Under the pieces are notes generated by a model, which did no database searches, was not told the DNA's origin, and was given only the letters and a program-made list of their open reading frames with translations. From a virus, in the UHGV virus genome UHGV-0203667: a DNA stretch of 13,326 bases. One strand, written 5' to 3'. The number at the start of each line of letters is the position of its first letter. Within the stretch, counting starts at the first letter, position 1. The translations under genes were made by a program, and so were the position numbers. Of this stretch, positions 1 through 13,326 are shown one piece after another.

Positions 1-531
1 ATGTTATTTCAGAAAGATAAAGAATCAGAAAACAAAAAGCTTTTTAAAGCAATAGTAAAAATGTTCTTTAAGGAGGCCGCACAGTTCGGGGCTACTATCC
101 TGCTTATTGGCCCTTGGGCAATGGCTATCTTCTTTTACCCTGCTACCTTATTTATTGGCAGTAGCAAGTTCGGCAATGGACCGTTTCATGTGGATACTGG
201 TTTTATAGATTTTCTCCTGATCCGCCCTATAAATGCTGTTCTCAATGCTTTCTACTTCCCCACTAGTCTGGAAGGGTGGGCGGTCACCTGGGGCGTTTTA
301 GGCTTAGCATTTGCAATATGGGTGATCGGCTTTTGGTGGAATGCGATCTGTGTTCTCCTTGATATCGATGGCGGAAAAAGCCGTAGAAGCGGTGGTAGCA
401 GTGGAGCAGGTATTTATGCACATGTAGGTACCAGGGGAGCTAGTGTTACCGCAGGTACCCGATTCGCTGGCGGCTGGCTGAGCATAGGCAAACGCGGCGT
501 TAGTTGGAGAAAAAGCAAAAAACTGTTCTGA
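1..531 (+). CDS. Multi-pass membrane protein with Gly/Ser/Arg-rich basic C-terminal tail; function unknown. The ORF touches the window edge, so the true start may lie upstream or at an internal Met
   Basis: The frame is open from base 1 to TGA 529-531. There are three long hydrophobic segments (ILLIGPWAMAIFFYPATLFIG, FIDFLLIRPINAVLNAFYF, WGVLGLAFAIWVIGFWWNAICVLL). A strong intrinsic terminator follows about 8 nt downstream. Confidence 0.6.
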   Translation: MLFQKDKESENKKLFKAIVKMFFKEAAQFGATILLIGPWAMAIFFYPATLFIGSSKFGNGPFHVDTGFIDFLLIRPINAVLNAFYFPTSLEGWAVTWGVLGLAFAIWVIGFWWNAICVLLDIDGGKSRRSGGSSGAGIYAHVGTRGASVTAGTRFAGGWLSIGKRGVSWRKSKKLF

Positions 532-538
532 CCTACCA

Positions 539-562
539 GGGGGCCATCACGGCCCCTTTTTA
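539..562 (+). terminator. Rho-independent terminator of the 1-531 gene
   Basis: GGGGCC (540-545), loop atcac, GGCCCC (551-556), followed by TTTTTATTT. Confidence 0.85.
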
Positions 563-580
563 TTTATCCCTCAATTAACC

Positions 581-610
581 CCTATTTATCCCCTATTTAA
601 TGCCTATTTA
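581..610. repeat. Three direct CCTATTTA repeats at exact 11-bp phasing (581, 592, 603), with a degenerate copy at about 561
   Basis: Read directly: cCCTATTTAtc cCCTATTTAat gCCTATTTAtt. One repeat per helical turn suggests a phased protein-binding or bent-DNA site. Confidence 0.6.
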
Positions 611-691
611 TTGATTTAATCCGTTTTATGTCACAACCGCCCGGTTGACAGAGTAATAGAGAGGGTGTAACCCTTTTTCGTAATACTAATA

Positions 692-707
692 AAATCAATA
701 AGTTAGC
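692..707. repeat. 16-bp exact repeat AAATCAATAAGTTAGC (partner at 8423-8438)
   Basis: The identical 16-mer occurs at both sites on the same strand. Each lies shortly downstream of the end of a plus-strand gene (531 and 8411). Confidence 0.6.
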
Positions 708-761
708 TTAATAAGCCTTTTCTCTATTTTTGTCAAATTTAACATACCCTAAAAAACTGCA

Positions 762-795
762 AAATCTGGCTGCAAGATTATCTGCAGCTGGATTT
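762..795. other. Imperfect 11-bp hairpin or inverted repeat
   Basis: AAATC tg GCTGCA agattatc TGCAGC tg GATTT. Confidence 0.4.
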
Positions 796-981
796 CTTAC
801 ACCTCATTTTGTGGTATCACCCTGGCTAGTTTGTGCATAAATTGAACAGTTTTTAACATTTCCTCCTCACCTGGTAACCACACAAAAAGCTAAAAACGAG
901 GCACAGATAATCTTAGAGGCCTGTTTTCTTGTTATCACTCTGGAAACGCCGTAGAAGTGATTTTGATGAAAGATGACCTAC

Positions 982-1000
982 CCTATTACACCCCTATTTT
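982..1000. repeat. Second pair of CCTATT(A/T) repeats at 11-bp phasing (982, 993)
   Basis: cCCTATTAca ccCCTATTTT; the same core and phase as the 581-610 cluster. Confidence 0.45.
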
Positions 1001-2011
1001 TTGTTATCACAATTGCATCCTGTGCGGTGTATGGCTATGTACTGAAAGCGGTTTTGGGTGTGGGTGTCAGAAATATCCATTAGCGGTATTAATACCTGTC
1101 AGATGTTCGTCTGAGGTGCCAGGCAGGCGCTCCCCTACCTCCCTTTTTTCTTCTAACAATTCTCAAATATCCGACCACTACTGACCACGTTGCTATTATG
1201 TTAATTCTTAAGCTTTGCTGTATGTTGTGCACATTATTTATTCAGGTGGCTGTACGTAAATTCTGTGCCCACTGATCATGATTTTTAAATCAGATTTTGT
1301 AGTGCGCTTTATTAGTGTAGATAAGATCTATTATGTTAAATGCAATTTTCCCAACCCTTCAAATCAATGACTTACGTGTAAGCATGCACTAACACCCCAC
1401 ACAGCACATTAGCCGTATAGATGGCTATACCCCACATATTTGATTGTTTTGTAGTCATTCCCCTGATCATTTAACCAGTATAGCTTGTTATCTGCAGACC
1501 ACAAAATAGGAATTTACATCTGATTAACATAATCTGTTAGCATGATCACTATTACCCACACAACAATAACCCCATGTAAGCCTCTTCAGGCAATTTATCG
1601 GCGTGTTGGTGTGAACAGTCTTTCATGTTCTTTATGAATGCATTGTCCTGTGTGAGGGAAGGATGGACTGCCTCAGGGGCCATACTTATGATGCCCGGTC
1701 AACATAGCTATTGATAAAATCAACGGGTGTTGATCTACATATTTCCCACACATGAGAGGAAATCAGAGCAAAGAGAGAGGAGAGAGGTTTGTTAGTCACA
1801 TATGGTGATTTGAGCTCATCTCAAACCTTCTACGAAGGCCTTTGCTAGTCAAAATAGGTCAATTGACGGCTAATACAGAGTAAAAAATCAGATGCAATCA
1901 CTCCCCACCTGTTGGGATTAACGGCCCCGAGTCAAGGCCTATGCAACGAGGGTATTTCCTACAACCCCTTTCAGTCATACTCAGGCACCACACCCCGGTA
2001 AATATTACCCT

Positions 2012-2320
2012 ACTACCCCGGAAGATTTCTCCGCACTACCTGTAAAATATTTTTACTACTAACACCCTCGAGACGAGGGCTATTTGCACGAGTTTAACGC
2101 TCTCGGGAAGAGCTATAGGCGATTCTACCTGTGAAGAATTTTCACACCTGTGTGTTTATACAGTCATACTTTCCTGTTTTGCAGTCATTGCACCCATGAT
2201 ACACAGCCTCTAACTACTGAAGATTTCTCACTACTTAACCACCATACCTACCCACACCCCTGAGAATTTCTCACCACTACTACCGAAGATTTCTCACTAG
2301 TACCCCTGAGAATTTCTCAC
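2012..2320. repeat. Iteron field: six direct repeats with core GA(A/G)(G/A)ATTTCTCAC, mostly flanked by ACTAC; candidate replication-origin or regulator-binding array
   Basis: Cores sit at 2021 (GAAGATTTCTCcg), 2219, 2262, 2285 and 2308, plus a degenerate palindromic variant GTGAAGAATTTTCAC at 2131-2145. The last three cores are exactly 23 bp apart. A short AT-rich stretch (taaaatatttttac, about 2043-2056) lies inside the field. A wHTH initiator-like gene lies about 1.1 kb downstream. Confidence 0.65.
2146..2165. promoter_or_regulatory. Candidate second LexA box (weaker)
   Basis: ACCTGTGTGTTTATACAGTC has the full CTGT-N8-ACAG core. It matches 14/20 positions of TACTGTATATATATACAGTA and lies inside the iteron field. 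Confidence 0.3.
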
Positions 2321-2342
2321 TCTAATAGATAAAGGAATAGAT

Positions 2343-2387
2343 CAATAAAAAGACCTCCCCCCTAACCCCCAGGGGGAATGGGGAGGG
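2343..2387 (-). terminator. Strong rho-independent terminator readable only on the minus strand, with no minus-strand CDS upstream of it
   Basis: The minus-strand RNA reads CCUCCCC auu CCCC cug GGGG uua GGGGAGG followed by UCUUUUUAUU. On the plus strand the hairpin has no U tract after it. Confidence 0.75.
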
Positions 2388-2389
2388 AT

Positions 2390-2830
2390 CAGAGAGTGGG
2401 GAAGGTTTTCTAAGGGAAAAGCTTAACCCACAAATGAAAGCCTAAAGAGCATGAGCGACTCTTTAGGCAATCTGTGTGGGGTGACAATGTATTCCATACA
2501 TGACACGTCACCCAATTGTGTGTGGGGAGCGTAGTGCTATAGCACGTAGCTTTATAGTGTGGAGTCCGGATAAGAGACTTCTGTTTCCAATCCGGACCGT
2601 TTAAGCGAGTGGTTTCTCGCGCGGGTGCACGCACACATATATAAAGGATACACTCATAAATCGAAAATAAGGCCCCTAAATGGCCTTCTGGCTGCATTAA
2701 CCTGTGTGAGTAGTGCAATTGCATTACCTGACCTCTAAATCGCGTTAGAATCGATTTTAGAGCGCTTAAGGCAAAAGTGCTCTCCCTCCCTTGTGGACTT
2801 GCTTGTACCTATAGCACACCTAAATGATAA
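2390..2830. ncRNA. Candidate structured non-coding RNA or structured DNA region (strand unresolved)
   Basis: There is no credible ORF. Hairpins and palindromes:
- 10-bp perfect hairpin at 2440-2468.
- 13-bp hairpin at 2479-2513, flanked by direct TGTGTGGGG repeats (2473-2481 and 2519-2527).
- 12-bp palindrome GTGCTATAGCAC at 2534-2545.
- 8-bp perfect hairpin at 2564-2597.
- Hairpin at 2669-2687.
- 10-bp palindrome TGCAATTGCA at 2715-2724.
- Two mutually exclusive hairpins at 2733-2762 and 2759-2783. The latter has a G-T pair that only works on the plus strand. Confidence 0.35.
2658..2687 (-). terminator. Possible second minus-strand intrinsic terminator
   Basis: The minus-strand RNA reads AAGGCC auuuagg GGCCUU followed by AUUUUCGAUUU. 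On the plus strand there is no U tract. Confidence 0.4.
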
Positions 2831-2839
2831 TAATTCTCA

Positions 2840-2868
2840 TTGACAATTGGTTGACAATATGATAAGAT
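2840..2868 (+). promoter_or_regulatory. Sigma70-type promoter P1 (TTGACA-17-TAAGAT)
   Basis: -35 TTGACA at 2840-2845, 17-bp spacer, -10 TAAGAT at 2863-2868. A second TTGACAAT sits 11 bp downstream (2851-2858) and a third at 3031-3038. Confidence 0.65.
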
Positions 2869-5076: not shown

Positions 5077-5116
5077 GTTTTATCTCTTCGATTTATTTAT
5101 TTTCGACTCACTTTAA

Positions 5117-5159
5117 CCCCTTCCGGGGCTTGACGTTGTCAAGGCCGCAGCTATGCGGC
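5117..5159 (+). promoter_or_regulatory. Triple tandem hairpin module, copy 1 (partner at 12577-12621)
   Basis: CCCC ttcc GGGG | CTTGAC gtt GTCAAG | GCCGCA gcta TGCGGC, with no spacers. It ends 20 nt before the 5180 start codon. Stems are conserved in the partner copy through compensatory changes. Confidence 0.6.
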
Positions 5160-5179
5160 TCTAATTTAAGGAATTCCAA

Positions 5180-5623
5180 ATGTCTCAAATCGCTAAATTA
5201 TTATCCCAGGTTATCAAAGCTATCGACGCTGAAGATTCAAAAGTTCGCCAGGATCTTTTAGATGGCAAGTTTACCAACACCCTGGCATTTACCCGTGACA
5301 AAGAGCACTTCTTAAAGCACAGACATCACGCTTTCGCTGAATGCAAGTCCGCTAATGGTGATGTTTTCTATGTCGATTTGGTGGTTATGGCATGTAGATT
5401 GTGGATGATTCAGGACCTTATGCGCCAACACGGTGATGATCCTTTTATCAGCATGTGGAACAGCGCCCAGGATGGCTTTGTGATTGCTGCCTTATCCAAA
5501 TCCATGATTGAGGCAGAAGGCGCAAGCCTTCAGAACATGGCAGATCTCTTTGAAATAAGCGTAGGAATGATGCAGACCATGCTGCAGGCGGTGAAGCCTC
5601 TCAAACTGGTTAATCTTGCTTAA
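5180..5623 (+). CDS. Hypothetical protein (147 aa)
   Basis: AAGGAA lies upstream of the ATG. The composition is coding-like and there is no competing ORF. Confidence 0.75.
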   Translation: MSQIAKLLSQVIKAIDAEDSKVRQDLLDGKFTNTLAFTRDKEHFLKHRHHAFAECKSANGDVFYVDLVVMACRLWMIQDLMRQHGDDPFISMWNSAQDGFVIAALSKSMIEAEGASLQNMADLFEISVGMMQTMLQAVKPLKLVNLA

Positions 5624-5683: not shown

Positions 5684-6118
5684 ATGAATATTGAAGAAAT
5701 GATAGTTGAATTCGAAGAGGGTGATTTCCTGGAAGAAGGGGAGTTTAAATACTCCCGTTTTAAACAGGCGTTATTTAGCAGCGATGATAAACCCCACGTT
5801 AGTGATCTTAACGACGATGATTTATGTCGCTGGGTATGCACCCGCTTATATGAAGATGGAAAGTATACAGGCCAAAACTTTCCAAATCTCTATTTCAAAG
5901 CACAAACATTTGAGGAAGGGCAAAGAGTGAAAAACCTGGTCGATAAAATGCTGTCAGCCGGATATTTGCATAAAGAATTATTAAATCCTAAAGCTGAAAG
6001 CAAGCGCCATTATATTTTTGTGTGGTCTGTGGGGGATAAGTGCCCACTGCATGGGAGTCCTTCCAGGACCTTAGCTAAAGCTAAGCCCGTTGGGTCTGTT
6101 AAGCGTAAAGGCAAATGA
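5684..6118 (+). CDS. Hypothetical protein (144 aa), acidic N-terminus, possible winged-helix C-terminal half
   Basis: ATG 5684 is preferred over 5678 because GAGGG lies 7 nt upstream of it. The stop TGA at 6116-6118 lies just before the next start codon. Confidence 0.7.
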   Translation: MNIEEMIVEFEEGDFLEEGEFKYSRFKQALFSSDDKPHVSDLNDDDLCRWVCTRLYEDGKYTGQNFPNLYFKAQTFEEGQRVKNLVDKMLSAGYLHKELLNPKAESKRHYIFVWSVGDKCPLHGSPSRTLAKAKPVGSVKRKGK

Positions 6119-6119
6119 T

Positions 6120-6305
6120 ATGAATACCTACGAAAAGATTTATCAAAAATTAAAAAGTGATAACAATGCTCCCGTCATCAAGGGCGGGGCTTCTTCCTCT
6201 GGTGACCTCTCAATCGAAGAGCTTGCGGAGAAATATAATATTGATAAAGAGGCCCTGAAAAGGGCTATTTCATTATCAAAATCTTTAAGACAGGGCGAGG
6301 TGTAA
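6120..6305 (+). CDS. Small hypothetical protein (61 aa)
   Basis: ATG 6120 lies 1 nt after the upstream stop, suggesting translational coupling. The track ORF from TTG 6090 overlaps the upstream gene and is less likely. Confidence 0.6.
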   Translation: MNTYEKIYQKLKSDNNAPVIKGGASSSGDLSIEELAEKYNIDKEALKRAISLSKSLRQGEV

Positions 6306-8438: not shown

Positions 8439-8460
8439 CTGACCGGATAAACTCCAGGCA

Positions 8461-8493
8461 AGAAAAAAGCCCCTAAGTGTTAACAAAGGGGCT
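8461..8493 (-). terminator. Rho-independent terminator, strong on the minus strand and weak at best on the plus strand
   Basis: The minus-strand RNA reads AGCCCCU uuguuaacacuu AGGGGCU followed by UUUUUUCU. On the plus strand the stem is followed by CUUCUCC. Confidence 0.75.
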
Positions 8494-8913
8494 CTTCTCC
8501 GGTATCCTTTTGATGCGGGGCAAAACCTGCTAACAAAAATCAACCTCTCGCGAGACTAATGTTAGCAGGTTGCCGGAAGGTAAGTCAACTCCGGCCTATA
8601 AACCTTAAAGCGACTATAAAATTGCCCCGCCAATTGTGATGATCCGACCTTTGAGGCGGGTCCGGTGCCCAGGGGGTGCAGTGATGCACAAACCAGGCAA
8701 CGATAAACAGGCTAACAGTGATAGCGGCGCTCTCTCAGCGCACTAAATCCTAACCAGTCCGGGAAAGAGGCTGGCTCTATCGACCGCTCATGCACGGGAC
8801 AATGCATACCTGATAAAGGATTCTCACAAGGGACCAATCGCGAGAAAAGAAGTGGAAAGGGGCTGATTTGTGGTGTATCACTACGGCCTCAAAAGACACC
8901 CTATTGCCTTTTT
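8494..8913 (-). ncRNA. ORF-free, highly structured roughly 420-nt region between the last minus-strand CDS and its terminator; candidate structured 3' UTR or ncRNA
   Basis: The supplied track has no ORF here. A perfect three-way junction spans 8515-8630: outer stem GCGGGGCAA/TTGCCCCGC (9 bp), inner stem ACCTGCTAACA/TGTTAGCAGGT (11 bp, with a 24-nt loop holding the palindrome TCTCGCGAGA), and inner stem GCCGGA/TCCGGC (6 bp). Further hairpins are GTGCA gtga TGCAC (8676-8689) and GCGCT ctctc AGCGC (8727-8741). The strand is assigned from the terminator orientation only. Confidence 0.4.
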
Positions 8914-12452: not shown

Positions 12453-12470
12453 CTGTATATTATATCAGTA
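12451..12470. promoter_or_regulatory. LexA (SOS) box
   Basis: TACTGTATATTATATCAGTA keeps CTG-N10-CAG intact and matches 15/20 positions of TACTGTATATATATACAGTA. All mismatches are A/T swaps in the spacer. It overlaps the -10 element and the start site of the minus-strand promoter. Confidence 0.8.
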
Positions 12471-12487
12471 TTTACTCACATTGTCAA
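12459..12487 (-). promoter_or_regulatory. Perfect consensus sigma70 promoter (TTGACA-17-TATAAT) directed leftward toward the head operon
   Basis: The minus strand reads TTGACA atgtgagtaaatactga TATAAT. The -35 is at 12482-12487 and the -10 at 12459-12464. The predicted start site is near 12452. Confidence 0.85.
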
Positions 12488-12576
12488 CACCCTGATTATA
12501 TAAATTCTAATAATTAGCGTAGTAACGGTATTTTCAGACCTCTATCAATCCCATCAATACGTCACCTCATCCCTGA

Positions 12577-12621
12577 CCTGCTTTGCAGGCTTGGCACACA
12601 GCCAAGGTCGCAGCTATGCGA
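12577..12621 (+). promoter_or_regulatory. Triple tandem hairpin module, copy 2 (partner at 5117-5159)
   Basis: CCTGC ttt GCAGG | CTTGGC acaca GCCAAG | g | TCGCA gcta TGCGA. It shares GCTTG..CAAGG and CGCAGCTATGCG with copy 1, and the stem differences are compensated. Confidence 0.6.
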
Positions 12622-12629
12622 CTCCTATC

Positions 12630-12660
12630 ATCTATCATAACTTTTTCATTCGTGATAGAT
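12630..12660. promoter_or_regulatory. 8-bp inverted repeat ATCTATCA-N15-TGATAGAT (possible operator), with a direct TATCAT duplication
   Basis: Read directly. It lies between the hairpin module and the right-hand small genes. Confidence 0.3.
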
Positions 12661-12757
12661 ATCTTTTGATCAATATCAATGTTTTCCTGGGATTTGCCCG
12701 GCTATAGTTCGAATCAAGGAAGGGGAGCATTGATAGCACCAAAACCGAACAAACAAA

Positions 12758-12772
12758 TCAACTTCTCGCAAA
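12758..12772 (+). repeat. Conserved 5'-UTR motif TCAACTTCTCGCAAA (exact copy at 13301-13315; related TCAACCTCTCGCGAG at 8540-8554)
   Basis: The 15-mer is identical at both sites, on the same strand, and each is followed by a purine-rich SD-like sequence (AAGGTGA or AGGGG). Confidence 0.55.
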
Positions 12773-12783
12773 AGGTGATAGTT

Positions 12784-12906
12784 ATGGGTATCAAGAACAG
12801 TGCCAGCGCATGGCAAAAGGCCAGGTTTCATCACCCACACATTGTTAAGGCAATTGAGGTGGTTGGAGTGTTAGCCCTGATGTTAGCTCTGTGTGTGGAG
12901 GTGTGA
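12784..12906 (+). CDS. Small (40 aa) membrane protein
   Basis: AAGGTGA lies 5 nt upstream of ATG 12784. The translation is MGIKNSASAWQKARFHHPHIVKAIEVVGVLALMLALCVEV, with a hydrophobic C-terminus. The track start at 12679 has no SD and would translate through the conserved UTR motif. Confidence 0.5.
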   Translation: MGIKNSASAWQKARFHHPHIVKAIEVVGVLALMLALCVEV

Positions 12907-13008: not shown

Positions 13009-13269
13009 ATGACGGGGGCTAAAGATATCAGGAGACTGAGGGAAGAGCTGATAGCTGAAATTAAAGCTAAGGCAAAGCAAATGGAGATAGCCGCGCAAAT
13101 GGATGTAGCGGAACAGATGTACAAGATGGTTGAAGAGGGAACACCACGACAGGTTATCGCTAAAACCTTCGGTGTGGGGATCGCCACCGTGCACAGAAGG
13201 CTGAAAGCCTATGCCGACTACCACAACATTGAGAGAGGGGAGGATGGGAGATTTAAGAAGAATAAATAG
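13009..13269 (+). CDS. Small HTH DNA-binding protein (86 aa), coiled-coil N-terminus
   Basis: GGAG lies upstream of the ATG. The HTH segment is TPRQVIAKTFGVGIATVHRRLKAY. Confidence 0.75.
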   Translation: MTGAKDIRRLREELIAEIKAKAKQMEIAAQMDVAEQMYKMVEEGTPRQVIAKTFGVGIATVHRRLKAYADYHNIERGEDGRFKKNK

Positions 13270-13300
13270 TAGGAACAGTCCAACAGGTTATTAACTAAAT

Positions 13301-13315
13301 TCAACTTCTCGCAAA
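13301..13315 (+). repeat. Second copy of the 5'-UTR motif TCAACTTCTCGCAAA
   Basis: Identical to 12758-12772. It is followed by GGGG, and the window ends before any start codon. Confidence 0.5.
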
Positions 13316-13326
13316 GGGGTACCGTC

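Follow-up and report, generated by a model that had tools for sequence, protein, structure and literature searches.

Optional triple-palindrome cassettes in a common 13.3-kb Escherichia coli plasmid family and in Vequintavirus phages

Why would a 13-kb genome carry two copies of a triple hairpin whose stems differ in sequence and still pair? The question is raised by UHGV-0203667, a 13,326-nt sequence catalogued as a virus genome (the window: the whole stretch of DNA analysed here), which is a complete circular ~13.3-kb Escherichia coli plasmid of a very common family. Three tandem hairpins lie at positions 5117-5159 (copy 1) and again at 12577-12621/2 (copy 2). A preliminary description took the paired changes between the copies as the mark of selection on structure rather than on sequence, and proposed an antitermination RNA, an RNase III processing site, a hairpin promoter or other single-stranded DNA signal, or a translational operator.

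Comparison with relatives shows that both copies are optional inserts, dispensable, and not a conserved regulatory element or gene switch. They belong to a class of cassettes found in the ~13.3-kb plasmid family and in a non-coding control region of rV5-like phages. Cassettes are polymorphic for presence and absence, occur at many sites and in both orientations, and recur as types across sites and in unrelated phage DNA. Their stems stay almost purely Watson-Crick though the sequences differ, and variable short direct repeats bracket them. At roughly even confidence, we favour the reading that each copy is a mobile, DNA-level palindrome-triplet mini-element, which resembles repetitive extragenic palindromes and bacterial interspersed mosaic elements (REP/BIME) or miniature inverted-repeat transposable elements, known as MITEs, and is a member of neither group.

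Two hairpin clusters in the window

The features of the two copies are as follows.

5117-5159, plus strand: copy 1 triple hairpin, reading CCCCttccGGGG / CTTGACgttGTCAAG / GCCGCAgctaTGCGGC
5117..5128, plus strand: backbone hairpin CCCCttccGGGG, the "hairpin 1" of copy 1 in the preliminary description, outside the inserted unit
5129..5158, plus strand: 30-nt insert, copy 1 hairpins 2 and 3, CTTGACgttGTCAAG + GCCGCAgctaTGCGG, with GGCT microhomology at both junctions
5170..5182, plus strand: Shine-Dalgarno (SD) sequence AAGGA and ATG of the 147-aa gene (open reading frame (ORF) list; fold of 5100-5185)
12572..12628, plus strand: 57-nt copy 2 insert, CCTGA, three hairpins and TCCTAT, bracketed by the repeats CCTCATC / CCTATCATC
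12577-12621/2, plus strand: copy 2 triple hairpin, reading CCTGCtttGCAGG / CTTGGCacacaGCCAAG / (G)TCGCAgctaTGCGA(C)
12577..12589, plus strand: copy 2 hairpin 1, CCTGCtttGCAGG
12590..12606, plus strand: copy 2 hairpin 2, CTTGGCacacaGCCAAG, a YTTRRS-class central palindrome common to most sister cassettes
12607..12622, plus strand: copy 2 hairpin 3, GTCGCAgctaTGCGAC

Both sequences, their hairpins and the compensatory changes were found where they had been described, and copy 1 ends 20 nt ahead of the ATG at 5180. The 12-mer shared by the copies, CGCAGCTATGCG, occurs exactly twice in the window. Could two unrelated GC-rich intergenic hairpin clusters merely resemble each other? The 12-mer alone leaves room for this, given that with 2 mismatches allowed it reaches at least 2 matches in 31 of 200 shuffles (not significant). 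The gapped 20-base pattern GCTTG..CAAGG..GCAGCTATGC, however, has 2 matches in the window and none in 200 shuffles, the window holds one triple cluster against 0.02 expected, and homologous variants exist in 17 relatives; chance resemblance is already refuted by the gapped pattern, the variants in relatives and the pairing counts given below, and we grant it next to no probability. Tandem hairpin clusters (4 against 0.84 expected) and chains of at least three abutting hairpins (4 against 1.0 expected, simulation maximum 3) are likewise in excess.

Each copy folds as RNA into three hairpins, as predicted, at -22.0 kcal/mol for copy 1 (z -3.3) and -20.5 kcal/mol for copy 2 (z -2.4). Folded as DNA, both reach -14.8 kcal/mol (z -4.7 and -4.1, respectively). 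The hairpins are separate, with stems of 4, 6 and 6 bp in copy 1 and 5, 6 and 6 bp in copy 2, and are followed by the tails TCTAATTT and TCCTATCA.

The paired changes hold in hairpin 2 (G-C/A-T) and hairpin 3 (T-A/C-G), but the reported replacement of the whole stem of hairpin 1 does not. The sequence CCCCTTCCGGGG is a backbone hairpin present in relatives that have no hairpins 2 and 3, and the "replacement" therefore sets two unrelated hairpins side by side, with no covariation between them. The unit truly common to both copies is hairpins 2 and 3 plus CTC, ~32 nt. Relatives supply a third compensatory pair, in copy 2 hairpin 1 (CCTGC/GCAGG vs CCTAC/GTAGG), giving three double changes in truly homologous hairpins. 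Across the 7 distinct module variants, 97.5% of cells are paired, compared with 92.9% in shuffles; the observed value was reached by 0 of 500 shuffles, and slid controls were 24-40% paired. We regard the original observation as confirmed, with hairpin 1 corrected, and its interpretation as partly supported: selection on structure over sequence is borne out by the compensatory pairs in the module and by 463 paired stem positions of 468 across ~30 cassette variants.

Presence and absence among relatives

We collected 33 family loci, of which 29 are non-redundant at the two sites. Copy 2 is present in 17 of these 29 and its site is empty in 12, with the same genes kept in the empty ones. A 57-nt block (12572-12628) stands where the empty allele has a single G. 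The site occurs on two diverged backbone types, each seen both filled and empty.

Filled sites vary further. In relatives, copy 2 hairpin 1 reads CCTAC/GTAGG or CCTAC/ATAGG (C·A when read on the plus strand, T·G on the minus), and in one (L040) it has been lost via a 9-nt deletion. C-type relatives carry a wholly different loop, GTACT, on the unchanged stem of hairpin 2, and the loop of hairpin 3 varies as GTTA and GCCA.

Copy 1 hairpins 2 and 3 are rarer, occurring in 3 of the 29 (the window, L041 and L038) and absent from 26. An empty allele, otherwise identical to the window, reads CCCCTTCCGGGG directly followed by CTCTAATTT; the copy 1 insert is therefore 30 nt (5129-5158), and CCCCTTCCGGGG was there before it. 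The CTCTAATTT that follows copy 1 is likewise backbone, being found in alleles that have no insert. In all, CCCCTTCCGGGG without hairpins 2 and 3 occurs in 10 non-redundant relatives, including L012, L022, L025, L027, L036, L028, L009, L015 and L026. Since L038 carries copy 1 and an empty site 2, the two inserts are independent. Other relatives have at the copy 1 junction a different extra hairpin, or a wholly different intergenic sequence with another hairpin; an alternative-allele hairpin there (GCCGTCCGG..CCGGATGGC) includes, on the sense strand, a G·U pair.

A further exchange was seen at this junction. The 35-nt block ACCCTCGAGACGAGGGCTATTTGCACGAGTTTAAC, which lies at 2063-2098 in an ORF-poor region of the window, is an insertion at the copy 1 junction in L009, L015 and L026, with TTTAAC repeats on its flanks. 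Its occurrence in both places indicates that the ORF-poor region and gene junctions swap short modules.

A wider class of cassettes

Alignment of 27 rotated family genomes and inspection of the indel blocks placed the two copies in a larger class. Blocks of 45-57 nt made of three abutting short hairpins occur at 10 or more sites, in both orientations, in intergenic DNA and in-frame in genes. Each consists of three abutting perfect inverted repeats, whose arms measure 4-7 bp and centres 3-5 nt; the whole spans 45-57 bp. The ~30 catalogued variants share one architecture, namely a 5-bp hairpin, a YTTRRS hairpin and a CC..GG hairpin in that order, where the central hairpin is 6-7 bp and has the form YTTRRS..SYYAAR. 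The central hairpins of the module (CTTGGC, CTTGAC) and its CCTGC..GCAGG hairpin fall within the classes of the catalogue. Two sister cassettes in the window are:

1796..1848, plus strand: TCACatatgGTGA / TTTGAGctcatCTCAAA / CCTTCtacGAAGG plus repeat TTTGCTAG, a 53-nt insert
6050..6100, plus strand: GTCCTtccAGGAC / CTTAGCtaaaGCTAAG / CCCgttGGG, in-frame, 51 nt = 17 codons, near the 3' end of a 146-aa ORF

The first is present in 5 of the 27 aligned genomes and its site is empty in 22. At the second site, relatives without the cassette encode a 127-aa protein, compared with 144 aa in those with it. The same type occurs at three sites, window ~6050, ~10525 and, inverted, ~13274. Of the other cassettes, GTCCACtctGTGGA / TTTGAGttctaCTCAAA / CCTGCataGCAGG directly follows the tape-measure stop codon, TCCActtcaTGGA / TTTGGCtaaaGCCAAA / CCTGCAaaagaTGCAGG lies upstream of the Dit-like gene, and CCCaaaGGG / GTGACTgaaAGTCAC / CTGGCataGCCAG occurs at two sites. 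Several sister cassettes are in 5' untranslated regions (UTRs) or between cistrons, one has a C(UUCG)G loop, and nested insertions within hairpin loops were seen. The plasmid cassettes are concentrated in the ORF-poor region that holds iteron-like repeats.

Is the module also a host repeat? The preliminary description had named a REP/BIME-type repeat spread through the host chromosome as a finding that would undo it. A blastn search of the 58-nt module (word size 11, E ≤ 10) against 5,426 complete E. coli genomes found 0 places on chromosomes and 5 on family plasmids, and the observation stands. JGI metagenomes yielded one further family member. Pattern scans gave 8 matches in IMG/VR, all chance, and 2 in GTDB species representatives, both chance matches in coding regions. 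As a control, a generic pattern for hairpins 2 and 3 (TTTAGCT..AGCTAAACC) matched at least 120 stretches in IMG/VR; among 81 matches in the 80 stretches examined, 0 palindromes were flanked by abutting hairpins on both sides, and all are attributed to chance.

In-frame cassettes seem to decay as hairpins yet persist as peptide. The plasmid in-frame cassette (family site ~6153-6168) translates to EDTPEGVTIGHLPEAAKE. A degenerate cassette at 34080-34137 of the phage nimi (L043) lies within an unannotated ORF and translates to EETSKGVTICPLTEPVQEE.

The plasmid and its link to Vequintavirus phages

The window is the circularised form of its own source contig, ENA contig L018, whose 13,445 nt comprise 13,326 nt and a 119-nt overlap. 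Its nucleotide matches are circular E. coli plasmids, non-mobilisable and 13.2-13.7 kb long, at 91-93% identity, and GenBank phages gave no near nucleotide match. BLAST coordinates had suggested a linear replicon with fixed ends; this was rejected, the records being circular and rotated. The family is abundant: more than 100 variants of the tape-measure protein are known at 92-97% identity, almost all of them from contigs of 13-14 kb, and a 152-aa protein is indexed in 1,661 blocks of an assembly collection. Searches with the 147-aa protein and the tape-measure protein found no close relatives in IMG/VR or GTDB species-representative genomes. Neither the plasmid family nor the cassettes were found described in the literature that we searched.

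The plasmid encodes an HTH_36 replication-initiator-like protein together with a major capsid protein, Dit-like baseplate and tail-completion-like proteins and a 700-aa tape measure. Four of its proteins have homologues in the Vequintavirus phage nimi (Dit-like, 49% identity; 152-aa protein, 45%; tape measure, 25%; capsid, 24.5%), and no terminase or portal family was matched in the ten proteins scanned. Judged on gene content, the plasmid looks like an extrachromosomal satellite of virulent rV5-like (Vequintavirus) phages.

The cassettes follow the same connection. A concatenated cassette query matched 70 Vequintavirus records at 85-87% identity in unannotated DNA, for the CCC/GTGAC/CTGGC (G/F) type only. 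The shared cassette type, at 85-88% identity, stands in phage DNA that is non-coding and otherwise unrelated to the plasmid, and when plasmids were compared with the first 50 kb of nimi the cassettes were the sole nucleotide similarity. Presence is again polymorphic: the cassette occurs in nimi and Murica and is absent from pangalan and HeinrichReichert, and a Vequintavirus-like contig from IMG/VR (L046) has a cassette where nimi has none. Several phage alignments break exactly at a cassette edge, and edges coincide with mosaic breakpoints in Vequintavirus genomes.

In nimi, the cassettes lie in and just beside a 2.5-kb non-coding region between divergent gene blocks (34.6-37.2 kb), which adjoins iteron-like repeats. 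Convincing cassettes are confined to 34.0-36.3 kb, and the genome-wide count of hairpin chains, 14 against a simulation mean of 7.2 and maximum of 13, is weakly above expectation. This placement, the concentration of plasmid cassettes in the ORF-poor region and the near-perfect Watson-Crick palindromy could mean that the cassettes are a functional DNA-level signal common to helper and satellite. As cruciforms, single-strand hairpins or dimer-binding sites, they might possibly serve replication priming (ssi-like), recombination-dependent replication, packaging, or the binding of a helper protein that senses infection. However, every copy examined is dispensable among near-identical genomes, the stem sequences are too diverse for a single sequence-specific binder, and copies occur within coding regions as well as at arbitrary junctions between genes. 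G4-type priming signals span ~100-140 nt, far more than the ~45 nt of a cassette. We consider a shared signal unlikely.

A palindrome kept in DNA or an RNA signal?

The stems offer the clearest view of the level at which pairing is maintained. Across 30 distinct variants, 98.9% of the 468 stem positions are Watson-Crick, with 2 G·T (0.4% of positions as G·U), 0 A·C and 3 other. A selected RNA helix would usually hold more G·U pairs. Orientation relative to local transcription, which we read from the cassettes against ORF strands, is mixed, sense and antisense. Because the stems are nearly pure Watson-Crick and the orientation is mixed, palindromy maintained in DNA fits better than a strand-specific RNA signal.

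A cis-acting RNA, whether an intercistronic stabiliser or processing site, a nut/put-like antiterminator or a translational operator of the downstream gene, nevertheless has points in its favour. Copy 1 lies within an operon just ahead of a start codon, the alternative allele there also has a hairpin, with its sense-strand G·U, the folds are stable with the SD sequence free, and sister cassettes recur in 5' UTRs and between cistrons. Set against these are its absence from most relatives with identical flanking genes, the mixed orientation and the scarcity of G·U. The antitermination and RNase III candidates of the preliminary description are not supported. Antitermination RNA finds no Rfam match at either copy (whole window, E ≤ 1) and no boxA/boxB. 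An RNase III site needs ~20 bp of double-stranded RNA, and the separate stems of 4-6 bp are far too short. As a group, the functional candidates are undercut by the empty alleles (12 of 29 for copy 2, 26 of 29 for copy 1 hairpins 2 and 3), by mixed orientation and by in-frame sister cassettes. We judge an RNA role to be distinctly improbable.

Copy 1 would be transcribed inside a long plus-strand operon, placing a pair of stable hairpins 20 nt ahead of the 147-aa gene; the fold of 5100-5185 leaves the SD sequence and ATG of that gene unpaired. Leaving the ribosome-binding site free, copy 1 would at most act mildly on the punctuation or stability of the mRNA. Copy 2 probably fills no required role. 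Upstream of it, no promoter was detected on the plus strand, no sigma-70-like match was found overlapping either copy, and the nearby promoter match, with copy 2 ~90 nt upstream of its -35 hexamer, reads away from copy 2:

12459..12487, minus strand: sigma-70-type promoter match, consensus-perfect (TTGACA-17-TATAAT, with TG), facing the capsid operon and conserved in all relatives

Two other candidates were set aside. A terminator scan lists no intrinsic site at 5117-5165 or 12577-12630, and neither copy has a U-tract terminator. Just 5' of copy 1, CGACTCACT resembles the core of a T7 promoter; it is backbone, found across all alleles of that type whether the insert is there or not, and we treat the resemblance as coincidence, with no single-subunit RNA polymerase in play. 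For an N4-type hairpin promoter, whose promoter-specific bases are read by a virion RNA polymerase, the fit is one of geometry only (5-7-bp stem, 3-nt loop) and concerns copy 1 hairpin 2; the related phages are Vequintavirus, not N4-like.

How cassettes may be gained and lost

The direct repeats that flank the cassettes are 2-12 nt long, often imperfect, and differ by cassette type. The G/F type has GAWAGAG; the C/D/E type has YTGTGKGG, as does an array upstream of the replication-initiator gene, in the hot region, where the motif separates palindromic modules; copy 2 has CCTMATC and copy 1 has GGCT. Variability in length and specificity to type speak against a transposase of fixed stagger and in favour of copy-choice or slipped-strand events where short stretches are homologous.

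Hairpins are known to stimulate deletion and template switching at short homologies. In the mini-element reading, cassettes would come and go by copy-choice, as template switching or slipped mispairing between short flanking repeats, while co-resident plasmid and phage genomes replicate, and the formation of a hairpin or cruciform would promote the switch. Palindromy would be kept in DNA if only foldable cassettes propagate, if one arm templates the other, or both. The cassettes themselves may be selfish or near-neutral DNA.

Alternatively, the cassettes may be non-autonomous transposable elements (MITE, REP, or palindrome-associated transposable element (PATE)-like) moved in trans by a hairpin-recognising enzyme: a Y1/HUH transposase, a REP-associated tyrosine transposase (RAYT), or a phage HNH or EndoVII-type nuclease, encoded by helper or host. 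Dispersal in both orientations, presence/absence polymorphism, phage-plasmid transfer and nested insertions in loops would all follow, the semi-conserved YTTRRS and CC..GG hairpins suggest a recognised shape, and the phage is annotated with several HNH endonucleases and an EndoVII-like nuclease. Yet the cassettes have no terminal inverted repeats, and their type-dependent flanks define no one target motif. No transposase family was matched in the 13 plasmid proteins scanned, and the "transposase-like" nimi_8 has no significant Pfam match. E. coli chromosomes are without copies, although a host trans-acting enzyme would be expected to seed them. Transposition in trans is, in our estimate, about as doubtful as a shared DNA-level signal.

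Several points weigh against a mobile mini-element spread by copy-choice. The mechanism is drawn from junction anatomy, and each event may be a gain or a loss; many "empty" alleles could be deletions between flanking repeats. The base of the central hairpin is conserved as YTT...AAR and the third hairpin recurs as CC..GG, and both hint at a protein that recognises specific sequence, something that pure slippage does not predict. The module's own type (CTTGGC / GTCGCA; both copies as query) was not found in any GenBank phage, and the phage link therefore holds for sister types only. Perfect palindromes fold as RNA in either orientation, making an RNA-level effect possible where a cassette is transcribed. 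Finally, the sample comprises ~30 of well over a thousand family contigs.

The recognition hint invites a more elaborate scenario, in which cassettes serve as portable recognition modules that a virulent helper Vequintavirus and its plasmid satellite trade with each other. A structure-specific enzyme or a DNA/RNA-binding protein of the helper would act on them, with the YTT..AAR central hairpin and the CC..GG third hairpin as the features recognised, coupling satellite expression, replication or recombination to infection. We see this as a long shot.

Comparison with known systems

How do the cassettes compare with structured repeats already described? REP/BIME elements are PU palindromes (palindromic units) in mosaic arrays on enterobacterial chromosomes, mobilised by RAYT transposases. 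Like them, the cassettes are short extragenic palindromes whose structure is kept, form mosaic arrays with a linker motif (here CTGTGTGGGG), vary in copy number between strains and are often intercistronic. However, they are not on the E. coli chromosome, they also occur in-frame in genes, and they are common to a virulent phage and a plasmid. Where REP has one imperfect palindrome of 20-40 nt with a GTAG/CGTC tag, the cassettes have three perfect palindromes of 11-19 nt and no tag across ~30 variants. A RAYT (Y1 transposase) domain was not matched among the 13 plasmid proteins scanned.

MITEs span ~100-400 bp, and Rickettsia palindromic elements (RPEs) insert in-frame into ORFs. The cassettes share with both a non-coding, non-autonomous nature, multiple dispersed copies and presence/absence polymorphism, and with RPEs the tolerance of in-frame copies within proteins (51 nt = 17 codons). 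Unlike MITEs, they are 45-57 bp long, make no fixed-length target duplication and have no parent insertion sequence that we could find, and their ends, by inspection, are not inverted copies (CATGGGA... vs ...TCTGT; ...GGA vs TCAGG). IS200/IS605-derived PATEs lack target duplication and insert 3' of one fixed tetra- or pentanucleotide, whereas the cassettes have direct repeats and left flanks as different as TAAT, TTAG, GGAT, ATAG and CATC.

Among phages, the nearest parallel may be the promoter-early stem-loop (PeSL) cassettes of T4-type phages, for which Arbiol, Comeau and Krisch reportedly proposed in 2010 a modular shuffling by recombination between copies. Both are ~50-bp stem-loop elements at gene boundaries in plastic regions of virulent phages, and here too the edges coincide with mosaic breakpoints. 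The cassettes differ in having no promoter consensus inside, three hairpins rather than one and a highly variable sequence, and in belonging to another phage group and to a plasmid as well. Integron attC sites are also recombination-associated and keep a folded single-strand structure while sequence is free to vary, but attC is one long imperfect hairpin with extrahelical bases, a GTTRRRY core and an IntI partner. The three independent hairpins of a cassette have none of those features, and no integrase family was matched in the plasmid proteins scanned. The intercistronic RNA hairpins of phages (T7 RNase III sites, T4 UUCG hairpins, lambda nut and HK022 put) resemble the cassettes in position, stable stems and some UUCG-type loops, and differ from these dispensable, orientation-independent elements with their short stems.

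If confirmed, the cassettes (~50 bp, three palindromes) would be among the smallest structured mobile cassettes known. They would be exchanged between a virulent phage and its apparent plasmid parasite, and are tolerated in promoter regions, between cistrons and in-frame within proteins. They would offer a tractable system for studying how hairpin-forming DNA spreads without a dedicated transposase and how it seeds phage mosaic breakpoints. For annotators there is a warning: a hairpin that covaries upstream of a gene in a phage-like element is not necessarily a regulator. The host element is itself notable, as a very common 13-kb plasmid with its own capsid and tape-measure genes related to those of rV5-like phages.

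Further observations on the plasmid family

The ORF-poor region spans 2.3 kb of the window (531-2868) and contains iteron-like 21-nt repeats (2213-2322) and 11-nt CCCTATTTA repeats (569-609). The motif CTGTGTGGGG is enriched there (31 matches vs 8.2 expected); in relatives, it separates palindromic modules in a variable-length array (~2470-2530 in the window).

Two records depart from the usual plasmid form. L020 (JAWROW010000003.1) is a 353-kb contig in which a DDE transposase and a beta-lactamase gene are joined to some of the plasmid sequence, suggesting a cointegrate or an insertion event. L017 (NZ_CP043822.1, 39.6 kb) contains about three tandem 13-kb units with small differences between them, and is either a multimer or an assembly artefact.

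Beside copy 2, at 12630-12680, the inverted repeat ATCTATCA..TGATAGAT and the palindrome TTGATCAATATCAA have operator-like symmetry. They lie between divergent operons, upstream of the gene for an 86-aa HTH_7 protein (13009-13269), and their alleles vary by backbone type. On the minus strand at 8458-8498, 3' of the tape-measure stop, a sub-threshold Rfam match to ctRNA_p42d (23.6 bits, gathering score 50, E = 0.24) is probably chance. A 21-nt repeat, AAATCAACTTCTCGCAAAAGG, occurs at 12755-12775 and 13298-13318 (also at 8537 and 11996), in the first two cases just 5' of start codons (an ATG near 12784 and, across the circle junction, the ATG at position 1), and it resembles start-associated sequences described in some phages.

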